Below are positions 8,194-49,021 of a stretch of 64,000 nucleotides of DNA, piece after piece. Under the pieces are notes generated by a model. That model was not told where the DNA came from. It saw only the letters and a list, made by a program, of their open reading frames with translations, and made no database searches. Origin of the DNA: Escherichia coli (GTDB lineage: Bacteria; Pseudomonadota; Gammaproteobacteria; Enterobacterales; Enterobacteriaceae); NCBI RefSeq assembly GCF_044647545.1, contig NZ_CP172818.1, one strand, 5' to 3'. Positions within the stretch are counted from its first letter, which is position 1, and each line of letters begins with the position of its first letter. The position numbers and the translations under genes were made by a program.

Positions 8194-10275
8194 ATGAAAG
8201 GTCGCCTGTTAGATGCTGTCCCGCTCAGTTCCCTAACGGGCGTTGGCGCAGCGCTTAGTAACAAGCTGGCGAAAATCAACCTGCATACCGTGCAGGATCT
8301 ACTCTTACACCTTCCCCTGCGCTACGAAGATCGCACCCATCTCTACCCCATCGGAGAACTACTACCGGGCGTTTATGCCACGGTGGAAGGCGAAGTGCTG
8401 AACTGCAATATCTCCTTCGGCGGTCGGCGGATGATGACCTGCCAGATCAGCGACGGTTCCGGCATTCTCACCATGCGCTTTTTCAACTTCAACGCGGCAA
8501 TGAAAAATAGCCTGGCGACGGGCCGCCGCGTGCTGGCCTATGGAGAAGCAAAGCGCGGTAAATATGGCGCGGAGATGATCCACCCGGAATACCGCGTGCA
8601 GGGCGATCTCAGTACGCCAGAGTTGCAGGAAACGCTTACGCCGGTTTATCCAACAACCGAAGGCGTAAAGCAGGCCACGCTGCGTAAATTAACCGACCAG
8701 GCGCTTGATCTGCTCGACACCTGCGCCATTGAAGAACTCCTGCCGCCGGAACTGTCACAAGGAATGATGACGCTACCGGAAGCGTTGCGCACTTTGCACC
8801 GCCCGCCGCCGACGCTACAGCTTAGCGATCTGGACACCGGCCAGCATCCGGCACAACGCCGTCTGATTCTGGAAGAACTGCTGGCGCACAACCTCAGCAT
8901 GTTAGCCTTACGTGCCGGAGCACAGCGTTTTCATGCCCAGCCACTGAGCGCCAATGACGCGCTGAAAAATAAACTCCTCGCCGCCTTACCGTTCAAGCCA
9001 ACGGGCGCACAGGCACGCGTAGCGGCGGAGATCGAGCGCGATATGGCGCTGGATGTGCCGATGATGCGCCTGGTACAGGGCGATGTAGGTTCCGGTAAAA
9101 CGCTGGTCGCCGCCCTCGCCGCGCTGCGTGCGATTGCCCACGGCAAACAGGTGGCATTGATGGCACCAACCGAATTACTCGCCGAACAGCACGCCAATAA
9201 CTTCCGTAACTGGTTTGCACCGCTCGGTATCGAAGTGGGCTGGCTCGCCGGTAGGCAGAAAGGTAAAGCGCGGCTGGCACAGCAGGAAGCCATCGCCAGC
9301 GGTCAGGTGCAGATGATTGTCGGAACACACGCCATCTTCCAGGAACAGGTGCAGTTTAACGGTCTGGCGCTGGTGATTATCGACGAACAGCATCGTTTTG
9401 GCGTGCATCAGCGTCTGGCGTTATGGGAGAAAGGCCAGCAGCAGGGCTTCCATCCGCATCAGTTGATCATGACCGCCACGCCCATCCCCCGCACGCTGGC
9501 GATGACTGCGTATGCTGATCTCGATACCTCGGTGATAGATGAGCTGCCGCCAGGCCGCACGCCAGTGACTACGGTCGCTATTCCTGATACCCGCCGTACC
9601 GACATTATTGACCGCGTGCGCCACGCCTGCATAACTGAAGGTCGTCAGGCATACTGGGTTTGTACGTTGATTGAAGAGTCGGAATTGCTGGAAGCGCAGG
9701 CGGCGGAAGCAACCTGGGAAGAGTTGAAACTGGCGTTGCCGGAACTGAACGTCGGCCTGGTACACGGGCGGATGAAACCTGCCGATAAACAGGCGGTGAT
9801 GGCGTCGTTTAAACAAGGTGAACTACACCTGCTGGTTGCCACTACCGTTATTGAAGTCGGTGTTGATGTGCCTAACGCCAGTCTGATGATTATCGAAAAC
9901 CCTGAGCGTCTGGGTCTGGCGCAGTTACACCAGCTTCGCGGGCGTGTAGGTCGTGGTGCGGTGGCTTCTCACTGCGTGCTGCTCTACAAAACGCCGCTCT
10001 CCAAAACCGCGCAAATTCGGCTGCAAGTGCTGCGCGACAGCAACGACGGTTTTGTGATTGCACAGAAAGACTTAGAGATTCGCGGCCCTGGCGAATTGTT
10101 AGGTACGCGTCAGACGGGTAATGCTGAATTTAAAGTGGCGGATTTACTGCGCGATCAGGCGATGATCCCGGAAGTTCAGCGCCTGGCGCGACATATTCAC
10201 GAACGTTACCCACAACAGGCAAAAGCCCTGATAGAACGCTGGATGCCGGAGACGGAACGTTACTCGAATGCGTAA
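8194..10275 (+). CDS. recG: ATP-dependent DNA helicase RecG
   Basis: 693 codons from ATG 8194 (MKGRLLDAVPL); Walker A GDVGSGKT, DEQH box and helicase C-terminal motifs. Confidence 0.95.
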   Translation: MKGRLLDAVPLSSLTGVGAALSNKLAKINLHTVQDLLLHLPLRYEDRTHLYPIGELLPGVYATVEGEVLNCNISFGGRRMMTCQISDGSGILTMRFFNFNAAMKNSLATGRRVLAYGEAKRGKYGAEMIHPEYRVQGDLSTPELQETLTPVYPTTEGVKQATLRKLTDQALDLLDTCAIEELLPPELSQGMMTLPEALRTLHRPPPTLQLSDLDTGQHPAQRRLILEELLAHNLSMLALRAGAQRFHAQPLSANDALKNKLLAALPFKPTGAQARVAAEIERDMALDVPMMRLVQGDVGSGKTLVAALAALRAIAHGKQVALMAPTELLAEQHANNFRNWFAPLGIEVGWLAGRQKGKARLAQQEAIASGQVQMIVGTHAIFQEQVQFNGLALVIIDEQHRFGVHQRLALWEKGQQQGFHPHQLIMTATPIPRTLAMTAYADLDTSVIDELPPGRTPVTTVAIPDTRRTDIIDRVRHACITEGRQAYWVCTLIEESELLEAQAAEATWEELKLALPELNVGLVHGRMKPADKQAVMASFKQGELHLLVATTVIEVGVDVPNASLMIIENPERLGLAQLHQLRGRVGRGAVASHCVLLYKTPLSKTAQIRLQVLRDSNDGFVIAQKDLEIRGPGELLGTRQTGNAEFKVADLLRDQAMIPEVQRLARHIHERYPQQAKALIERWMPETERYSNA

Positions 10276-10277
10276 AA

Positions 10278-10300
10278 GGCGGCGGTGAGAAGACCGCCGC
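10278..10300. terminator. Hairpin between convergent recG and gltS, probable bidirectional terminator
   Basis: GGCGGCGGT-loop-ACCGCCGC inverted repeat in the 33-bp gap between the two stop codons. Confidence 0.5.
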
Positions 10301-10308
10301 TTCATCGG

Positions 10309-11514
10309 TTAACCGGCAAAAATCGGCAACATCAAATACAGCTTAATCACCAGCGCATTGACGATATCGATAAAGAACGCACCGACCATCGGCACGACCA
10401 GGAACGCCATGTGCGACGGGCCAAAGCGTTCAGTGATCGCCTGCATGTTAGCGATTGCCGTTGGTGTCGCGCCAAGGCCAAAGCCACAGTGACCCGCAGC
10501 CAGCACTGCCGCATCGTAGTTTTTGCCCATCATGCGCCAGGTAACGAAGATGGCATACAACGCCATGAAGATGGTCTGTACCACCAGAATCGCCAGCATC
10601 GGCAGCGCCAGCGAAGCCAGCTCCCACAGTTTCAGCCCCATCAGCGCCATCGCCAGGAACAACGACAGGCTTACGTTACCCAGCACGGATACCGCTCGCT
10701 CAAAGACGCGGTAAAAGCCCATCATTGACAGACCGTTGCTCAGAATCACGCCAACAAATAGTACACAGACGAAGGTCGGTAGTTCAAAAGCAGTACCAGC
10801 CAAAAGTTGCGCAACAATTTTCCCCACCGTCAGGCAGATAGCAATCAGCGCGATAGTTTCAATCAGCACCAGCGAGGTGATCATGCGGCCCACATCCGGC
10901 TTTTCGAACGCAGTCGGAACTTCCTGGTCATCCGGAATACCGTTCGGTGTGGTGGAGTGTTTCACCAGATAGCGCGCCACCGGACCGCCAATCAAGCCGC
11001 CCAGCACCAAACCGAACGTTGCACAGGCCATCGCCACTTCTGTCGCATTGGTGAAGCCATAACGTTCAATGAACAATTTACTCCATGCAGCTCCCGTACC
11101 GTGACCGCCGGAAAGCGTAATAGAACCGGCCAACAGCCCCATCAGCGGATCAAGCCCTAACAGGCTAGCCATACCAATGCCAATGGCATTTTGCATCACC
11201 AACAGGCCAACAACCACAATCAAGAAGATGCCAACCACACGCCCACCGGCACGCAAACTGGCAATGTTGGCGTTCAGGCCAATGGTGGCGAAGAAAGCCA
11301 GCATCAACGGATCGCGCAGGGACATATCAAAGTTGACTTCCCAGCCCATGCTTTTTTTCAGTATCAGCAGCGCCAGCGCCACTAATAAACCACCCGCAAC
11401 AGGTTCCGGTATGGTGTATTTCTTCAAAAAGGAGACGGAATGGACCAACTTGCGCCCGAGCAGCAACGTCAGCGTTGCGGCAACAAGCGTTGCTAAAGTA
11501 TCGAGATGAAACAT
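10309..11514 (-). CDS. gltS: Sodium/glutamate symporter
   Basis: 401-codon polytopic membrane protein MFHLDTLATLVAATLTLLLG. Confidence 0.95.
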   Translation of the reverse strand: MFHLDTLATLVAATLTLLLGRKLVHSVSFLKKYTIPEPVAGGLLVALALLILKKSMGWEVNFDMSLRDPLMLAFFATIGLNANIASLRAGGRVVGIFLIVVVGLLVMQNAIGIGMASLLGLDPLMGLLAGSITLSGGHGTGAAWSKLFIERYGFTNATEVAMACATFGLVLGGLIGGPVARYLVKHSTTPNGIPDDQEVPTAFEKPDVGRMITSLVLIETIALIAICLTVGKIVAQLLAGTAFELPTFVCVLFVGVILSNGLSMMGFYRVFERAVSVLGNVSLSLFLAMALMGLKLWELASLALPMLAILVVQTIFMALYAIFVTWRMMGKNYDAAVLAAGHCGFGLGATPTAIANMQAITERFGPSHMAFLVVPMVGAFFIDIVNALVIKLYLMLPIFAG

Positions 11515-37031: not shown

Positions 37032-38720
37032 TTATTCCCCCACCATTTCAGTATTCGCCGCACCTGGCGGCACCATCGGGTACACTTTTTCTTCGGCATC
37101 AATACGCACATGGATCAGCGCCGGGCCAGGGCGATTGATGATTTCCTGTAATGCAGCCTGCGGATCGGTTTCGTTATTCAAATCACAGGTTTCGAGGCCG
37201 AATCCGGCGGCAATCTGCATAAAGTTGATTTTTCCCGGATAGGTAGCGGCAAAAACGCCCTGCTTGTAGAACAGACTCTGTTGCTGATGTACCAGCCCCA
37301 GCGCTTCGTTGTTCATCAGAATGATTTTGACATCCAGCTGATTTTCACTGGCGGTCGCCATCTCCTGAATATTCATCATCAGGCTGCCGTCGCCGGAGAA
37401 ACACAACACTTTGCGATCCGGGTTCGCCAGCGCTGCGCCAATCGCCGCAGGCAGGCCAAAGCCCATCGTGCCCAGCCCGCCGGAGGTCAGCCACTGGCGC
37501 GGGCGATTGAGCGGATAAGCCTGCGCCGTCCACATCTGATGCTGACCCACGTCGGTGGTGATAATCGCGCTGTCATCGACACAGGCGGCAACAGCGTTGA
37601 TCAGGCCGTAATGCGTTAACGGATCGCACGCTTTCGGGATTGGACACGGGAATTCGCGCTGCAAATCCGCCACCAACTGGTGCCACTCTGCACGCGGTTG
37701 CGCTTCCACCAGCGGGATCAATTGCGCCAGCACGTCATCAACATCCGCCTGAATCGCTACGTGCGGTTGCTTGATTTTGCCCAGCTCTGCACGGTCGATA
37801 TCGACATGAATGATTTTCGCATTCGGGCAGAACTGCTCGGTTTTGCCAATCGCCCGGTCATCAAAACGCGCACCGAGCACAATCAGCAGATCCGCCTCCT
37901 GCAGTATATAGTTGGTGCTGCGCACGCCGTGCATCCCCAGCATACCCAGCGACAGCGGATTCGCTTTTGGCAGCATGCCCAGCGCCATTAAGGTCATGGT
38001 AGTTGGCAATTGCGCTTTCTCTGCCAGTTCACGCACCCGTGCGGGCGCATTGATCACACCGCCGCCCAGATAAAGCACCGGGCGTTTGGCGGCGTTAATC
38101 ATTGCCGCTGCGTCACGAATGCTTTCTTCGCTAAAGGCGGGTGCGGCGGCTTTTTCTGCCATAGCTGGCTGTGCTTCAATCTCAAAAACCGCCGTTTGCA
38201 CATCTTTAGGAATGTCTATCCACACCGGGCCAGGGCGGCCTGATTGCGCAATGCGGAAGGCATCGCTCATGACCTGCGGGAGTTCTTCGATATGTCTGAC
38301 CAGATAGTTGTGTTTGGTGATGGGGATAGAGATGCCGTAGGTGTCCACTTCCTGGAAGGCGTCGGTGCCGATCATCGAGGCAGGAACCTGACCGGTGATG
38401 CAAATCAGCGGGATGGAATCCAGCCGCGCATCGGCAATGGCGGTCACCAGGTTAGTCGCACCCGGTCCGCTACAGGCCATACAGACCGCCGGTTTACCGT
38501 CGGTGCGCGCCATTCCCTGAGCGATAAACCCCGCGCCCTGTTCATGGCGAGCCAGAATATGGCGGATTTGCGTGCTTTGGCTTAAGGCATCGTAAACAGG
38601 CAGGATAGAACCGCCCGGAATGCCCGTCACAATCTTAATGCCCTGCTGTTCCAGGAAATGAACGATAAATTCTGCGCCGGTAAAGCGCTTACGCGTCGAT
38701 GTTGTGCCCGAACTTGCCAT
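37032..38720 (-). CDS. ilvB: Acetolactate synthase I large subunit
   Basis: 562-codon ThDP-dependent enzyme MASSGTTSTRKRFTGAEFIVHFLEQQGIKIV. Confidence 0.95.
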   Translation of the reverse strand: MASSGTTSTRKRFTGAEFIVHFLEQQGIKIVTGIPGGSILPVYDALSQSTQIRHILARHEQGAGFIAQGMARTDGKPAVCMACSGPGATNLVTAIADARLDSIPLICITGQVPASMIGTDAFQEVDTYGISIPITKHNYLVRHIEELPQVMSDAFRIAQSGRPGPVWIDIPKDVQTAVFEIEAQPAMAEKAAAPAFSEESIRDAAAMINAAKRPVLYLGGGVINAPARVRELAEKAQLPTTMTLMALGMLPKANPLSLGMLGMHGVRSTNYILQEADLLIVLGARFDDRAIGKTEQFCPNAKIIHVDIDRAELGKIKQPHVAIQADVDDVLAQLIPLVEAQPRAEWHQLVADLQREFPCPIPKACDPLTHYGLINAVAACVDDSAIITTDVGQHQMWTAQAYPLNRPRQWLTSGGLGTMGFGLPAAIGAALANPDRKVLCFSGDGSLMMNIQEMATASENQLDVKIILMNNEALGLVHQQQSLFYKQGVFAATYPGKINFMQIAAGFGLETCDLNNETDPQAALQEIINRPGPALIHVRIDAEEKVYPMVPPGAANTEMVGE

Positions 38721-38768
38721 GCTCCAGTCCTTTTCTTCTGGGCCGACTTTCCGGGAGGTGCTTAAACG

Positions 38769-38798
38769 AAAAACCCCGCCCGGTTTGCGCCGGCGGGG
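38769..38798 (-). terminator. ilvB attenuator terminator
   Basis: On the minus strand a CCCCGCC ... GGCGGGG hairpin followed by a U-run, between ivbL and ilvB. Confidence 0.75.
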
Positions 38799-38825
38799 TT
38801 TTGGAATCGTGTGTTGTTCCAGTCC

Positions 38826-38924
38826 CTACGGCGCATTGCCGACGACGACCACCACACGCACGACGACCACTGCGGCGGATGGCGCAGTTGGTAGTAGTTT
38901 TGCGTTGAGCATGGAAGTAGTCAT
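38826..38924 (-). CDS. ivbL: ilvB operon leader peptide
   Basis: 32-codon ORF MTTSMLNAKLLPTAPSAAVVVVRVVVVVGNAP rich in Val and Leu, upstream of the attenuator. Confidence 0.9.
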   Translation of the reverse strand: MTTSMLNAKLLPTAPSAAVVVVRVVVVVGNAP

Positions 38925-39049
38925 TGGGGACCTTGTTGGTTTTGTGTTTAACAATATTTATACAAGCACAGCTTTACAGGGGAGACAATGGAAAATTTTT
39001 CAGCAAGGGAAAATTGAGGGGTTGATCACGTTTTGTACTGAATTGCGGG

Positions 39050-39190
39050 TAACAAAAAACCCCGCCGGAGCGAGGTTTCGTCAGTCGCCTGCGGCTGGTA
39101 ACCGCAAAGCACACTGTATTATGTCAACACTGAAAGTATACGTGTTCCGCGCAGAACGCGCAATTTCGGCACGAATTTTGACGTATTTAG
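39050..39190 (-). ncRNA. istR: IstR small RNA region (IstR-1/IstR-2), antitoxin of tisB
   Basis: Minus-strand hairpin plus U-run terminator near 39054-39080; the segment near 39108-39128 is complementary to the tisAB leader near 39370-39390; transcript ends approximate. Confidence 0.55.
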
Positions 39191-39236
39191 TACATAGTTG
39201 AGTATCGTTCACAGTTTTCGTTTTGTCCAAATATTA

Positions 39237-39252
39237 CTGTTTATTTATACAG
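39237..39252. promoter_or_regulatory. LexA box between divergent istR-2 and tisAB
   Basis: CTGTTTATTTATACAG, a CTGT-N8-ACAG palindrome. Confidence 0.8.
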
Positions 39253-39488
39253 TAAACTTCTATAATATCACTGTACGCAATGTGTTATGCGGGGGCCGCA
39301 TCGTTACCCGGCGCACTAAGTCCTGGCTGAAACGGGTGGTGCCGTCAGCGCCTTAACCCCGCGTGAGCACACTGTGTTATGTCAACAAGCACAACGTTTC
39401 TCCTTGAGATACCGCGTGCACAACAGCTGGCAACAGGCAGCGGAAAGGTACGTCAGCTGGCAGTGCTCCTGAACCACAGGAGACGCGT

Positions 39489-39578
39489 ATGAGCCTGGTG
39501 GATATCGCCATTCTTATCCTCAAACTCATTGTTGCAGCACTGCAACTGCTTGATACTGTTCTGAAATACCTGAAGTAA
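39489..39578 (+). CDS. tisB: Type I toxin TisB (SOS-induced membrane peptide)
   Basis: 29-codon ORF MSLVDIAILILKLIVAALQLLDTVLKYLK. Confidence 0.9.
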   Translation: MSLVDIAILILKLIVAALQLLDTVLKYLK

Positions 39579-39857
39579 TTCAGATTCAAGTCGCACCAAA
39601 GGGGAGCGGGTAACCGCTCCCCTTTCATATTTAGCGTGCGGGTTGGTGTCGGATGCAATGCTGATGCATCTTATCCGCCCTACCATCCCTCCCGGCAACA
39701 TTTATTGCCGCTTTTGTTTACATATTCTGCCGCTAAACAATTCCCCATTCCTGGCGTATATCTGGCTAACATTTATCAATGTGATAGATTCCTCTCCCGC
39801 ATTTATGGGAATGCGTAGTGACTTATTCTAATTATTTTTATAAAAGCATCCGTGATA

Positions 39858-41049: not shown

Positions 41050-41547
41050 TCACCGCAGCATCGTCATCAGCTCCATGGGAGAACGATGCTGCTTTATCAG
41101 ATCACGCATCACCCGCATATGCGGCGCGGAGTAAGAATAAAACGCCTGATAGCCCGCACAAAGCACGTTGTCTGGCGTCTCCTCCCGAGCGTGCGGGCAC
41201 AGGCGATGCCAGTCGCACGCCTGGCAGCCACGACGCGGTTGCGGGTTTTCGCTGCCACACCATTTTTGTAGGGTGGCGTCAAAAAGCTCAATCGAAATAC
41301 GACTGATATCTGCCCGTACCCAACACTCGAACAGGGCAATTAAAAATTTCCCCCACAGCTCTGCTGTCACCGAAGCGGCCGTCAGATCGCCCCGGTCATC
41401 AAATTCAAGATGGGGAATAAGCTGTACGGAGCGGATACCCCGTTGTTTGAAATTGTGATAAAAATCGGCAGGTTGCAGAGCATCCTTGTACTCTACAACC
41501 AGTTTATGCCTGTCCTCTTCAGCATCAATGACCTGACTTCCTGTCAT
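41050..41547 (-). CDS. yidF: Truncated anaerobic-sulfatase-maturase-like protein (Cys-rich C-terminal domain only)
   Basis: 165-codon ORF with clustered Cys (CGSENPQPRRGCQACDWHRLC) but no radical-SAM CxxxCxxC core. Confidence 0.8.
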   Translation of the reverse strand: MTGSQVIDAEEDRHKLVVEYKDALQPADFYHNFKQRGIRSVQLIPHLEFDDRGDLTAASVTAELWGKFLIALFECWVRADISRISIELFDATLQKWCGSENPQPRRGCQACDWHRLCPHAREETPDNVLCAGYQAFYSYSAPHMRVMRDLIKQHRSPMELMTMLR

Positions 41548-41906
41548 GCGACTCTCTCAATAAATACGATAAGTTGATGTATATGCGTTACAGCAAACAG
41601 TATTGCGAGAGATAACACCGCGAGGGAGATCAAAAATTTGTCACGGACTACGTGAAATTGGGAAAAATCGCTATTCGTGACATCCATTAAATTGCGATTA
41701 CGGGTGTAGTGCCAGAGGATCAGCGCCACAATGGCGAGAATGCCAATCGAAATCCAGAATAACATGCCCGCCTGGTGCCAGTTGTGTTTGATAGCCAACG
41801 CCATCAACGCGCCGTAGCCCAGCATGGTACGAAACCACGCCAGTGATGTACGCTCCGGCTGCAGCCCTGGGTCGGCAATGCGTCTGGCTTTGCGGCTATC
41901 CGGCAT
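41544..41906 (-). CDS. yidG: Small inner membrane protein YidG
   Basis: 120-codon ORF with three predicted TM helices; overlaps yidF and yidH. Confidence 0.8.
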   Translation of the reverse strand: MPDSRKARRIADPGLQPERTSLAWFRTMLGYGALMALAIKHNWHQAGMLFWISIGILAIVALILWHYTRNRNLMDVTNSDFSQFHVVRDKFLISLAVLSLAILFAVTHIHQLIVFIERVA

Positions 41907-42243
41907 ACAACACCAGTCCCATAACGATCACCGCCACGACCATCAATATTAAGCTGATGATTAATAAGCTGTTGGTGTAGGGCAGGTCCTCTTTCAGACG
42001 CATCGCTTTTTCATTGCGTAACCAGCGCAGGTAGCCATACATCGCTAACCCGCCGGAAAACAGACACAACAACAACGCCAGCAGTTCGCGAATGACGGGC
42101 GTGGCGAAATCTGGCGCAAGTTGATCAAGCCCAACCCCCGCCGCCAGAAAGCCTAGTGCGGTACGGATCCACGCCAGAAAAGTACGCTCATTAGCCAGCG
42201 AGAAGCGATAATCAGGTGCTTCTCCGAGGCGGGAAATTTTCAT
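41896..42243 (-). CDS. yidH: Small inner membrane protein YidH (DUF202)
   Basis: 115-codon hydrophobic ORF. Confidence 0.8.
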   Translation of the reverse strand: MKISRLGEAPDYRFSLANERTFLAWIRTALGFLAAGVGLDQLAPDFATPVIRELLALLLCLFSGGLAMYGYLRWLRNEKAMRLKEDLPYTNSLLIISLILMVVAVIVMGLVLYAG

Positions 42244-42302
42244 TGTTGCTCCTTAACTGTTCCTCGCCGAAAAAAGTAGGCCAGGAAAACAGCAATAATG
42301 CA

Positions 42303-43796
42303 TCAGAACTTCTGTTTTTTCTCTTCCACCTTCACCCCTTGTGTCGGTAGGCCGGTGTCATAGTCGCGTACCACTGGCGAATAGCCATCTTGTGGGCGTG
42401 GACGAAACGCCCCCATCCAGCGCGGTCGTGCATCTTTACGCCACGGACGCAGACTCCATTGGTAACTGCGGAACGGATCGCGAATTTTGTCCATGTAATC
42501 CAATAAGGCGTCATGCATTTTGCGGCGAACGTCGGCAAAACGGATATCATCGATCAGATTATGCATTTCATTTGAATCATTACGGCGATCGTAAAGTTCA
42601 TCACTGGTGAAGAGGTTGAGTACCAGTTTAAAGTCATCCGTCACCCAGCAACGCACCGGAATAAAACCGCCAAAGCTGTCATGCTCAATCTCGTAGCGGT
42701 TAAATTCCACCATTACACCGCGTGGCTCTTTCACGGCAAGGATATTTTCCCCCGGCAGAATCTCTGGTTTTTCAATATCTGCCAGCGCCATCATTGTCGG
42801 CAGTAAATCGATATGACTGACTGGCGTATCGACCTGTCGCCGCTCCCCTTGCGGCGAACGGATGATCAGCGGAATGCGGGTGATGTCGTCATACATCGCC
42901 GCCCCTTTACTGATCAGCTTATGTGCGCCCATCATTTCGCCGTGATCGGAGGTATAAATAACCCACGTATTTTCACGTTGCTCTGGCGTTAAGGCATTGA
43001 TGACCCGTCCGATTTGGTCATCAACAAAGTCATTGCAGGCAAAATAGAGCGGATGGTGATAAAGCCCGTCATCACCGACTGGCGATGGCATCGCCTGCGC
43101 CCATAAGCGGTGATGTTCCGGTTTGTTCGCCAGGTCATCCTGTGATTTCTCGCCAAGTTCGTAGTAAAAATCAGCGTATTTCTCTAAATACTCCACCGGA
43201 CAGGTGAACGGGTGATGCGGCTCATCATACGAAACCACCATCAGGAAGGGTTCCTCGGCGCGCGCGGGCTGTTGCAGAAAATCTACCGCCCGATTGCTGA
43301 TGCGGTGCGCCCAGGTGAAGGTTTCGTCGATATGGTTCGCCTGTAAATCCTCAACGCTGTTTAGGCCATTGCGCCACAGGCTGATCTCTTTTTCCGTCAG
43401 TTCGCTAAGGTAGTTCGCCCCATCGAACCAGTAATCAGCGTCCCACTCCGGCGGACACTCGCCAGTGCCGAAATAGTCATGACCGTCGAGATGCCATTTG
43501 CCGATGTAACAGGTGTGATAGCCCGCATCCTTAAAGTAGCGTCCCATAGTGGAGATGTTTTTGCCCGGCGCGACGTTGTTGGTCCACGGGCCGGACTGGT
43601 TAGCGTAGATACCGGTAAACAGCCCGGCGCGCGCTGGTGTACAAACCGGTGAACAGGTGTAGGCGGAATTAAAGCGAATACTTTCCGCCGCCAGACTATC
43701 AATATTTTGCGTATTCAGCGGCTTACCGCTATAGCAACCGACCATATTGGTGGCCTGGGTATCGGTCATGATGAACAGAAAATTGGGGCGTTTCAT
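42303..43796 (-). CDS. yidJ: Cys-type sulfatase
   Basis: 497-codon ORF with sulfatase signature CTPARAGLFTG (C-x-P-x-R formylglycine motif). Confidence 0.9.
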   Translation of the reverse strand: MKRPNFLFIMTDTQATNMVGCYSGKPLNTQNIDSLAAESIRFNSAYTCSPVCTPARAGLFTGIYANQSGPWTNNVAPGKNISTMGRYFKDAGYHTCYIGKWHLDGHDYFGTGECPPEWDADYWFDGANYLSELTEKEISLWRNGLNSVEDLQANHIDETFTWAHRISNRAVDFLQQPARAEEPFLMVVSYDEPHHPFTCPVEYLEKYADFYYELGEKSQDDLANKPEHHRLWAQAMPSPVGDDGLYHHPLYFACNDFVDDQIGRVINALTPEQRENTWVIYTSDHGEMMGAHKLISKGAAMYDDITRIPLIIRSPQGERRQVDTPVSHIDLLPTMMALADIEKPEILPGENILAVKEPRGVMVEFNRYEIEHDSFGGFIPVRCWVTDDFKLVLNLFTSDELYDRRNDSNEMHNLIDDIRFADVRRKMHDALLDYMDKIRDPFRSYQWSLRPWRKDARPRWMGAFRPRPQDGYSPVVRDYDTGLPTQGVKVEEKKQKF

Positions 43797-45508
43797 AGGC
43801 TATCCTTCGCGTCGGGAGTAAAGGTTACGGCTGGGTCGTGACGATGCCGCCAGCTGTCAAAAATCAGGTAGACAATCACTACGGCAGCGATGAAATAACT
43901 GATCATCGCTAACCAGCGCGTACCGTAGCCGCCGAATTCAGCCAGCCCGGCATAGACGCCAATCATAGCGAACAGGATGCCAATTGACGCGATCTTGACG
44001 TTTTTCCACGGTTTCATGTCCACCGCAAACGCATCTTTGAAGGTGAACGGCGTGGCGCGCGGTTTGATAAAACCGATCACCAGCATCACGACCACGTTGA
44101 TGCAGAACGTACAGGCCAGCACATAGAGGAAATGGAAGTCGAACTTCACCAGATAGTTGATGGTGATGTAGCTGATTATGCCAATCCCCATCGCCACTTT
44201 TGCCGCCAGCGCTGGAATGCGCGGGAAGAAAAAGCCCATAATGATGATGGTAACCAGCGGCACGTTGTAAATACCGTTGAGCTGTTTCATCCAGCTATAC
44301 AGCCCCTGCGGCGCGTTGGCGATCCACGGCGCGACCAGCACCGAAACGATAGCGATAAAGAAACCAAATTTGCGCCCGACGGTGACCAGCTGCTGCGGCT
44401 CGGCATTCTGGTTAATGATGCGACGGTAAATACCCATACTGAATAACGTACTGGCGCTATTCAGAAAGCCGTTGAAGGTACTGATCACCGCACCAAATAA
44501 CACCGCGCCGAAGAAACCCACCAGTGGCACTGGCAGAACGTTATTGACCAGCGTCGGGTAGGCCATGTCGGCTTTCGGTAGATCCTGATACAGATGAAAC
44601 GCAATCAACCCTGGCAGCACCAGTACCAGCGGGTCGAGCATTTTCAGCACCGCCGTTAACAGCGCCCCCTTTTGCCCTTCCGCCAGGCTTTTTGACGCCA
44701 GCGTGCGTTGCACGATGCCCTGATTTGTACACCAGTAAAAGGTGTTCACCAGAATCAAACCGGTAAATGCCGCGCCAATCGGCAAGGGATCGGTCGGGCC
44801 ACCGACTGAGTTTAATTTCTCGGCGTGAACGGTGGTGAGTTGCTCAATGCCCTGCATAAAGCTGCCCTTGCCCATCGCGATCAGGCCAAATATCGGCACC
44901 ATCAACCCGCCAATAACCAGCCCAATACCGTTGATGGAGTCCGCCACTGCCATTGCGCGCAGTCCGCCGATCACCGCATACAAAATTCCCGCCAGACCAA
45001 GCAAAATTACCAATAGCCAGATAGCCGCACCGTGAGAAATCTGTAGCGATTCCCCGACGTGAAACAGGCTGTTGAGCGCCAACGCGCCGGAGTAGAGAAC
45101 AATCGGCAGAAAGCAGACGCCGGTGGCAATGAGGAAGCAGAAGTCGATGATAATACGCGTCGTTTTATCATAACGTTCCTCCAGAAAATCGGGGATGGTG
45201 GCAATGCCGCGCTTCAGATAGCGTGGTAAAAAGATTAGCGCGAGGAAGATCAGCGTCACCGCTGAAGTCACTTCCCAGCCCATCACCGACATGCCGCTTT
45301 TGTAGGCCTGCCCGGAAAGACCAACCAGTTGTTCCGTGGAAAGGTTGGTTAACATTAACGAAGCGGCAATAACCGGCGCTTTTAGTGAACGTCCGGCAAG
45401 AAAATAGCCTTGTTGCGATCCGGTATCTGTTTTGCGAACCTTCCACCAGGTGATGATCGCCACCAGCAGCGTAAAACCGACAAAACTCAAGATTTGTAAC
45501 GAATTCAT
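43793..45508 (-). CDS. yidK: Sodium:solute symporter (SSS) family transporter
   Basis: 571-codon polytopic membrane protein; start overlaps the yidJ stop. Confidence 0.9.
   Translation of the reverse strand: MNSLQILSFVGFTLLVAIITWWKVRKTDTGSQQGYFLAGRSLKAPVIAASLMLTNLSTEQLVGLSGQAYKSGMSVMGWEVTSAVTLIFLALIFLPRYLKRGIATIPDFLEERYDKTTRIIIDFCFLIATGVCFLPIVLYSGALALNSLFHVGESLQISHGAAIWLLVILLGLAGILYAVIGGLRAMAVADSINGIGLVIGGLMVPIFGLIAMGKGSFMQGIEQLTTVHAEKLNSVGGPTDPLPIGAAFTGLILVNTFYWCTNQGIVQRTLASKSLAEGQKGALLTAVLKMLDPLVLVLPGLIAFHLYQDLPKADMAYPTLVNNVLPVPLVGFFGAVLFGAVISTFNGFLNSASTLFSMGIYRRIINQNAEPQQLVTVGRKFGFFIAIVSVLVAPWIANAPQGLYSWMKQLNGIYNVPLVTIIIMGFFFPRIPALAAKVAMGIGIISYITINYLVKFDFHFLYVLACTFCINVVVMLVIGFIKPRATPFTFKDAFAVDMKPWKNVKIASIGILFAMIGVYAGLAEFGGYGTRWLAMISYFIAAVVIVYLIFDSWRHRHDPAVTFTPDAKDSL

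Positions 45509-45674: not shown

Positions 45675-49021
<3,347 letters not shown>

Follow-up and report, generated by a model that had tools for sequence, protein, structure and literature searches.

The yidF gene of Escherichia coli encodes a 165-residue protein of the yid sulfatase locus. In the window analysed here, a 64,000-nucleotide stretch of contig NZ_CP172818.1 (RefSeq assembly GCF_044647545.1), it lies beyond the sulfatase gene yidJ and the membrane protein genes yidH and yidG. Judged by its sequence, yidF is the same gene as that of a 370-residue anaerobic sulfatase-maturating enzyme (anSME), after in-frame internal deletions that make radical S-adenosylmethionine (SAM) chemistry impossible; the database label ‘radical SAM protein’ is wrong for it. 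With a probability of roughly 0.6, the short YidF is a catalytically dead remnant kept by selection, possibly a single-cluster iron-sulfur (Fe-S) module, and YidJ is matured elsewhere. Both yidF as an annotated gene and the parent anSME family were already known. What appears to be new is an in-frame, selected product of reduction that keeps the second auxiliary cluster (Aux II) and C-terminal module of the enzyme and has many natural intermediates. The gene and its retained parts map as follows:

41050..41547, minus strand: yidF, 165 residues, an in-frame, internally deleted derivative of a 370-residue anSME (open reading frame, RefSeq annotation, partial NCBIfam match, full-length orthologues at the same position)
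41263..41499, minus strand: YidF residues 17-95, radical-SAM barrel remnant (HMMER alignment with 4K36, AlphaFold2 model, Foldseek, and a nonsynonymous to synonymous rate ratio, dN/dS, of 0.14)
41158..41226, minus strand: YidF C108-x2-C111-x5-C117 ... C130, four-cysteine site (alignment, with ligand assignment from PMC5715301)
41053..41157, minus strand: YidF residues 131-165, C-terminal helices with the motif APHMRVMRDLIKQHRSPMELMTMLR (near-invariant between genera; dN/dS 0.06-0.08 in short forms)

A preliminary description of the locus had taken YidF for the cysteine-rich, SPASM-like C-terminal part of an anSME, devoid of the radical-SAM core and unlikely to be a maturase by itself. The loss of the core was borne out. 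CxxxCxxC, the radical-SAM [4Fe-4S] motif present in the full-length orthologues, is absent from the 165-residue protein, which has no Pfam match at E<=0.1 and hence none to PF13186 (SPASM). Against the anSME model TIGR03942, YidF scores 75.9 bits, compared with a curated cutoff of 349.45 bits, in two partial stretches: the better one covers profile positions 160-245 of 363 and the second is C-terminal. As the same description had anticipated, orthologous loci do carry a full-length maturase. In 31 species loci of the Enterobacteriaceae, an intact enzyme of about 370 residues, with CxxxCxxC and 15 cysteines, occupies the identical position. These orthologues start with MTGC(Q/H)VMAKPASSRCNLxCRYCFY, and their start overlaps the stop codon of yidG, an arrangement common to every form of yidF. 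At locus L002, for example, yidL, yidK, yidJ, yidH and yidG are followed by a gene that begins MTGCHVMAKPASSRCNLRCRYCFY and encodes a complete SPASM domain and the shared tail, interrupted by an ‘nn’ assembly gap.

Alignment with the full-length protein of Citrobacter braakii locates the losses. E. coli YidF keeps residues 1-6, lacks about 7-150 (the barrel core), keeps about 155-240, lacks about 243-305 (the first SPASM half) and keeps the rest, with four further residues gone inside CX2CX5CX3C. Among the short forms, the first deletion runs from reference residues ~7-37 to ~139-158 and the second from ~239-250 to ~294-302, both net in-frame. The ancestral start codon and first six residues have thus been retained despite two internal deletions. 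Of the earlier claim about a C-terminal part, the cysteine-rich C-terminus stands; the ancestral start and a barrel remnant are kept as well, and of the SPASM domain only the second half.

The retained module is homologous to two segments of anSMEcpe (PDB 4K36-4K39), a member of the anSME family (AtsB/AslB/ChuR; TIGR03942). HMMER aligns YidF residues 27-95 with anSMEcpe 175-246 and residues 105-152 with anSMEcpe 314-370 (4K36). Barrel strands beta5-alpha6 and the conserved C-terminal helices are kept, and the SAM-binding strands beta1-beta4 are missing. YidF C108, C111, C117 and C130 fall on anSMEcpe C317, C320, C326 and C348. In a paper on PqqE that summarises the structure, these four residues are given as the ligands of Aux II, and C255, C261, C276 and C330 as those of the first auxiliary cluster (Aux I); the paper also describes Aux II as the presumed carrier of electrons between the surface of the protein and its buried site (PMC5715301). 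With the first SPASM half, YidF lost three of the four Aux I ligands, while the four Aux II-equivalent cysteines stay. The placement of the four-residue gap is ambiguous, and C117 could equally be the equivalent of C330; four cysteines remain either way. In 31 of 31 short forms, the CxxC and the last cysteine are invariant, and the third or the fourth cysteine of the motif is always present.

An AlphaFold2 (AF2) model of YidF is compact (pLDDT 79.9, pTM 0.79), with the barrel remnant folded as beta-alpha-beta-alpha elements. Among solved structures, Foldseek returned anSMEcpe as its sole significant match (E = 1e-5, TM 0.56-0.58 on the query). Such a fold, together with the conserved four-cysteine site, would suit a small protein that binds a single Fe-S cluster or has a structural role. 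YidF resembles anSMEs in common descent, in this best structural match, in a shared C-terminal motif, in the adjacent Cys-type sulfatase and in the operon position of its 370-residue orthologues. It differs from them in lacking CxxxCxxC, strands beta1-beta4, Aux I and therefore two fully ligated auxiliary clusters, and in scoring below the family cutoff. The likeness to SPASM/Twitch domains (PF13186) is also partial. The CX2CX5C and distal cysteine of YidF are ligands of the second auxiliary cluster in SPASM; the Cx9-15Gx4C half is deleted and CX2CX5CX3C is shortened to CX2CX5C. A Twitch domain consists of the first half of SPASM: it binds one cluster, in the Aux I position, and lacks CX2CX5CX3C (PMC5715301). 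YidF, in contrast, is the second SPASM half only and is unattached to any radical-SAM domain.

Selection on this module was assessed with Nei-Gojobori estimates of dN/dS on codon alignments, neutrality being evaluated by a binomial test. For yidF, dN/dS is 0.154 across six Escherichia lineages with the 165-residue architecture (dS 0.58), 0.158 across twelve Citrobacter/Salmonella forms of 176-178 residues (dS 1.3) and 0.19 between the Escherichia and Citrobacter/Salmonella short groups (dS about 2). Full-length forms give 0.09-0.12 over the same columns. Constraint on the short gene is roughly halved yet clearly present. Within the short forms, it is strongest in the tail (0.06-0.08), followed by the barrel remnant (0.14-0.15) and the cysteine region (0.20-0.24). 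Neutrality of yidF is rejected in each of three independent Escherichia pairs (P = 5e-8 to 1e-14). Because purifying selection maintains a module unable to make formylglycine, a residual non-catalytic role of YidF is indicated. The neighbouring genes are more constrained still, with Escherichia dN/dS values of 0.05 for yidJ, 0.02 for yidK, 0.02 for yidH and 0.06 for yidG. The picture of a degraded, cryptic locus drawn in the preliminary description is contradicted by these values.

The reduced architecture is not peculiar to E. coli. Homology searches recovered YidF-like proteins of 162-178 residues in at least seven genera, including Escherichia, Citrobacter, Leclercia, Superficieibacter, Klebsiella-like bacteria and Silvania, at 41-52% identity. 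Almost every one starts with MTG(C/S) and closes with APHMRVMRDLIKQHRSPMELMAMLR, which hardly varies. A full-length match to a complete family had been named as an observation that would speak against truncation; YidF does align end to end with these proteins, but the family is itself derived from the 370-residue enzyme. Taking one genome per species, a scan yielded 76 loci, and 67 Enterobacteriaceae species loci were used to count forms. Thirty short and two long-degenerate forms are in-frame, compared with four frame-broken ones, one of which comes from an assembly with frameshifts throughout. In the nominally complete assemblies behind loci L068 (Enterobacter sp. EA-1) and L084 (C. koseri LR134204), frameshifts split many genes of the region (yidG, emrD, ilvB, yidF), an apparent sequencing error, and both were kept out of the evidence for pseudogenisation.

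Intermediates were sought among 1.8 billion representative proteins. Three degenerate forms of 310-315 residues (P0115, P0117, P0123) have CxxxCxxC and GGE ruined and the first SPASM half deleted, with open reading frames and intact tails. In P0116, of 363 residues, the motifs are ruined in an open frame with the SPASM domain intact and the tail conserved. Further short forms of 220, 175, 162, 156 and 154 residues were found. The sizes now form a series of 370, 350/360, ~310, 249, ~215 (213-220) and 192 residues, down to 162-178, which looks like a stepwise trimming of dispensable parts with the core module preserved. The 192-residue form, from C. farmeri (L085 5697-6275) and one genome of the C. 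amalonaticus group (L022 8001-8579), holds CxxxCxxC intact within its first 25 residues, fused straight to the beta5 region; the barrel is gone. The first deletion spans reference residues 33-158 in this form, ~37-139 at L003, 11-156 in Silvania and 7-156 in Leclercia adecarboxylata. The yid locus documents, with unusual completeness, the natural trimming of one radical-SAM enzyme in which a specific sub-module is under selection throughout. The series points to a function of the SPASM Aux II/C-terminal end that is separable from catalysis.

At the DNA level, short yidF alleles share just 71-84% identity with their closest full-length counterparts, and so must be old. In a neighbour-joining tree of the shared yidF region, the Leclercia and Silvania short forms stand beside full-length Leclercia, and the remaining short forms make up one long-branched group. 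In the emrD tree, short (yidJKL-less) and intact (yidJKL-containing) haplotypes are interleaved among very close Citrobacter species. We conclude that short yidF arose at least twice and was later trimmed further in-frame, and that its haplotypes persisted for long or were exchanged.

Reduction of YidF is associated with absence of the sulfatase. Reduced forms occur in 24 of 33 loci without yidJKL and in 9 of 31 with yidJKL (Fisher P = 0.001, uncorrected for phylogeny), and all three ~310-residue intermediates lie in loci without yidJKL. Since reduced YidF is commoner where these genes are absent, loss of the client sulfatase seems to release the catalytic part, with yidH, yidG and the YidF core staying behind. 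In Escherichia, the sulfatase persists beside a short YidF. The dN/dS of yidJ is 0.05 whether YidF is short or intact, and YidJ is thus useful without a dedicated maturase: either maturation has another source, or formylglycine is unneeded. Both would account for the dispensability of YidF catalysis. PMC8379841 gives E. coli two putative anSMEs, encoded by aslB and ydeM, and a suspected third formylglycine-forming system. A related Cys-type choline sulfatase made in E. coli was reported to be active without formylglycine (PMC6189696). In pairing a sulfatase gene with a gene of the anSME family, the yid locus is like aslA-aslB and ydeN-ydeM of the same genome. Unlike yidF, aslB and ydeM encode full-length putative anSMEs according to the literature. 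The yid locus further has a cytoplasmic sulfatase, a sodium:solute symporter and a pair of DUF202 proteins; the asl and yde loci were compared from the literature on maturases.

A scheme consistent with these results can be proposed. The yid locus would be a conserved Enterobacteriaceae module for the import of a sulfated solute and its desulfation in the cytoplasm, in which YidK would act as symporter, YidJ as Cys-type sulfatase, YidL as regulator and YidH/YidG as a DUF202 membrane pair. Ancestral YidF would have been the dedicated 370-residue radical-SAM/SPASM maturase. In the Escherichia lineage, in-frame deletions took away the radical-SAM cluster motif, those barrel strands that bind SAM, and the SPASM half that carries Aux I. 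The remaining 165-residue module comprises the yidG-coupled start, beta5-alpha6, the Aux II-equivalent four-cysteine site and the C-terminal helices. This remnant may persist as a small protein, structural or with a single Fe-S cluster, that is expressed together with YidH/YidG, and YidJ could be matured by AslB, by YdeM or by the suspected third formylglycine-forming activity, or could work with an unmodified cysteine. Co-retention with yidHG and translational coupling suggest that YidF is made together with YidH/YidG.

Several observations weigh against this picture of a selected remnant. The short forms of Klebsiella/Raoultella, Leclercia/Silvania and Superficieibacter have dN/dS of 0.2-0.3, from few sequences. 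A subset of the C. freundii group has the third cysteine replaced by tyrosine, with the fourth kept, and the putative binding of an Fe-S cluster is read solely from conserved cysteines. The large clade of short forms may reflect long-branch attraction, and the number of independent deletions is correspondingly uncertain. The C-terminal motif also ends the anSMEs of Vibrio, Marinomonas and several Bacteroidota and is thus ancestral, not specific to YidGH. AF2 prediction of a linker-fused YidH-YidG-YidF with a paired alignment, meant to show whether the YidF tail docks on the membrane pair, reached pLDDT 60.7 and pTM 0.42 and gave no support for a complex. Enterobacter kobei has no yidF at all: at L083 5338-5710, the next gene, 8 bp past yidG, is a convergent one of the PALP family. 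As this species retains yidHG, the pair does not strictly require YidF, and some backgrounds can do without it. Literature searches on yidF turned up no functional study of expression, cofactor or phenotype. Two candidate ideas were affected by these comparisons. The invariant tail as a YidGH-specific interface was rejected, the same motif ending anSMEs of Vibrio, Marinomonas and Bacteroidota without adjacent DUF202 genes, and an obligatory partnership of YidF with YidGH was weakened by E. kobei. Together with the uninformative fused-chain model, these two findings speak against YidF being tightly associated with YidGH.

Other accounts of the short gene were weighed. If yidF were a pseudogene remnant drifting neutrally while a cryptic sulfatase locus decays around it, the loss of its catalytic core, the excess of reduced forms in loci lacking yidJ, the frameshifts at L018 and L058, the complete loss in E. 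kobei and the rare frameshift variants among E. coli strains would all be expected. This account is largely refuted by dN/dS values of 0.15-0.19 over dS of 0.6-2.1, all accrued in the short state, and sits poorly with 32 in-frame as against 4 frame-broken forms, with a tail constrained as in intact enzymes and with the strong constraint on yidJ, yidK, yidH and yidG; we regard it as unlikely. The frame might also be kept for a reason other than the protein, through coupling that stabilises the yidHG message or as a shield against convergent transcription from emrD. The start of yidF overlaps the yidG stop in every form, and emrD converges on yidF with 7 bp between the stop codons. A promoter and terminator scan of the locus gave nothing above shuffled expectation and no terminator-like site between the two genes. 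Such a reason would preserve the frame, not the residues, whereas nonsynonymous changes are depleted about six-fold, with their lowest level in the last 35 codons, specific cysteines are invariant, and in Citrobacter, where emrD is ~5 kb off, the yidF reading frame is still kept; the explanation is improbable.

A further account gives YidF a continuing part in sulfatase maturation. YidF could serve as one half of a split or hetero-oligomeric enzyme, completed for instance by the radical-SAM domain of AslB or YdeM, or within a third formylglycine system. In Escherichia, S. enterica arizonae and Superficieibacter, its gene still lies in one operon with that of a Cys-type sulfatase, the protein has kept the Aux II-type site and the end of the enzyme that faces the surface, and the suspected third system of E. 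coli lacks an identified gene. However, short forms are similarly constrained in Citrobacter, Klebsiella, Silvania and others without yidJKL, YidF has neither the barrel that binds the substrate nor Aux I nor the first half of SPASM, and no N-terminal half is encoded nearby, so that we give this role little credence. A more specific version of the favoured remnant account is a tentative possibility: the short YidF would be an exapted, free-standing ‘second-half SPASM’, a novel type of small single-[4Fe-4S] protein that would retain the electron-relay end of its parent enzyme, with Aux II and the C-terminal helices, and would have a redox or adaptor role alongside YidH/YidG. The bolder proposal that it is a component of the suspected third formylglycine-forming system of E. 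coli is hardly credible.

The remaining genes of the cluster match the inventory first drawn up from the sequence, in identity and in position:

41544..41906, minus strand: yidG, 120-residue DUF202 membrane protein (Pfam PF02656; syntenic in all Enterobacteriaceae loci examined)
41896..42243, minus strand: yidH, 115-residue DUF202 membrane protein, extremely conserved (Pfam PF02656; dN/dS)
42303..43796, minus strand: yidJ, 497-residue cytoplasmic Cys-type S1 sulfatase (Pfam Sulfatase and SGSH_C; solved homologues)
43629..43643, minus strand: YidJ formylglycine signature C52-T-P-A-R56 (translation; 32 orthologues)
43793..45508, minus strand: yidK, 571-residue sodium:solute symporter (PF00474; NF007790 at 856.6 bits)
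45675..46568, plus strand: yidL, divergent AraC-family regulator (HTH_AraC, HTH_18 and AraC_binding matches; annotation of L001)

YidJ had been described as a Cys-type sulfatase with a CTPAR motif, and it is an intact one by both marks of the S1 class, a sulfatase-fold profile and a (C/S)xPxR signature. Pfam Sulfatase PF00884 matches residues 4-341 at 240.7 bits, and C52-T-P-A-R56 is invariant in 32 of the 32 orthologues checked. Residues 2-444 align with solved S1 sulfatases, the best solved homologues. As residue ~25 of these homologues already falls on YidJ residue 2, there is no room for a signal peptide and the enzyme is cytoplasmic. Literature searches on yidJ, within the library available to them, returned no experimental report of sulfatase activity or formylglycine.

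YidG and YidH match PF02656 (DUF202) at 46 and 69.8 bits (cutoff 23.4). YidH, with dN/dS of 0.02-0.05, is among the most constrained genes of the locus, and yidH and yidG persist together where yidJKL has been lost. In Vibrio litoralis, the six genes occur together in a different order, the sulfatase sharing 75% identity with YidJ and the DUF202 pair lying at L073 8733-9460; the pair therefore belongs to the whole sulfatase module. In Marinomonas, a YidH-like gene (L071 8860-9186) accompanies genes for an anSME, a sulfatase, a symporter and an AraC protein. The eukaryotic VTC polyphosphate channel likewise has DUF202 as its membrane domain, which makes anion (sulfate) export a candidate role for YidH/YidG.

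The DNA of the window is 99.8% identical to E. coli chromosomes, many of them complete genomes, in which yidF, yidG, yidH, yidJ, yidK and yidL are annotated. The minus strand carries yidK-yidJ-yidH-yidG-yidF, with yidL divergent. Genes yidK and yidJ overlap by 4 bp, yidJ and yidH are 59 bp apart, yidH and yidG overlap by 11 bp, and the ATG of yidF overlaps the yidG stop as ATGA. The coordinates of yidL are those of the RefSeq start; a longer open reading frame begins at GTG 45645. In the one-genome-per-species scan, Enterobacteriaceae share a conserved gene order, yidL/yidK-yidJ-yidH-yidG-yidF followed by emrD and ilvB. Locus L050, titled Chryseobacterium sp. 18061, is a typical Enterobacteriaceae locus with a full yid module and emrD/ilvB 87% identical to those of E. 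coli; the record is probably mislabelled or contaminated.

The gene yidI is absent from the window, where just 59 bp (42244-42302) separate yidJ from yidH. Other Escherichia have ~545 extra bp there (L004 6700-7305; L006 6700-7305), with a hydrophobic open reading frame inside on the opposite strand. A 6-phospho-alpha-glucosidase gene (46565-47405, minus strand) adjoins yidL and bears a ~500-bp internal deletion at 46779-46803, which leaves two open reading frame fragments of 265 and 74 residues. The otherwise identical strain L001 has the gene intact, at 1323 bp (10066-11388). Upstream of emrD, identity with an annotated strain places the ivbL leader peptide, the tisB type I toxin and ysdE, all unrelated to yidF, at 38700-39850 of the window (L001 2327-3277).

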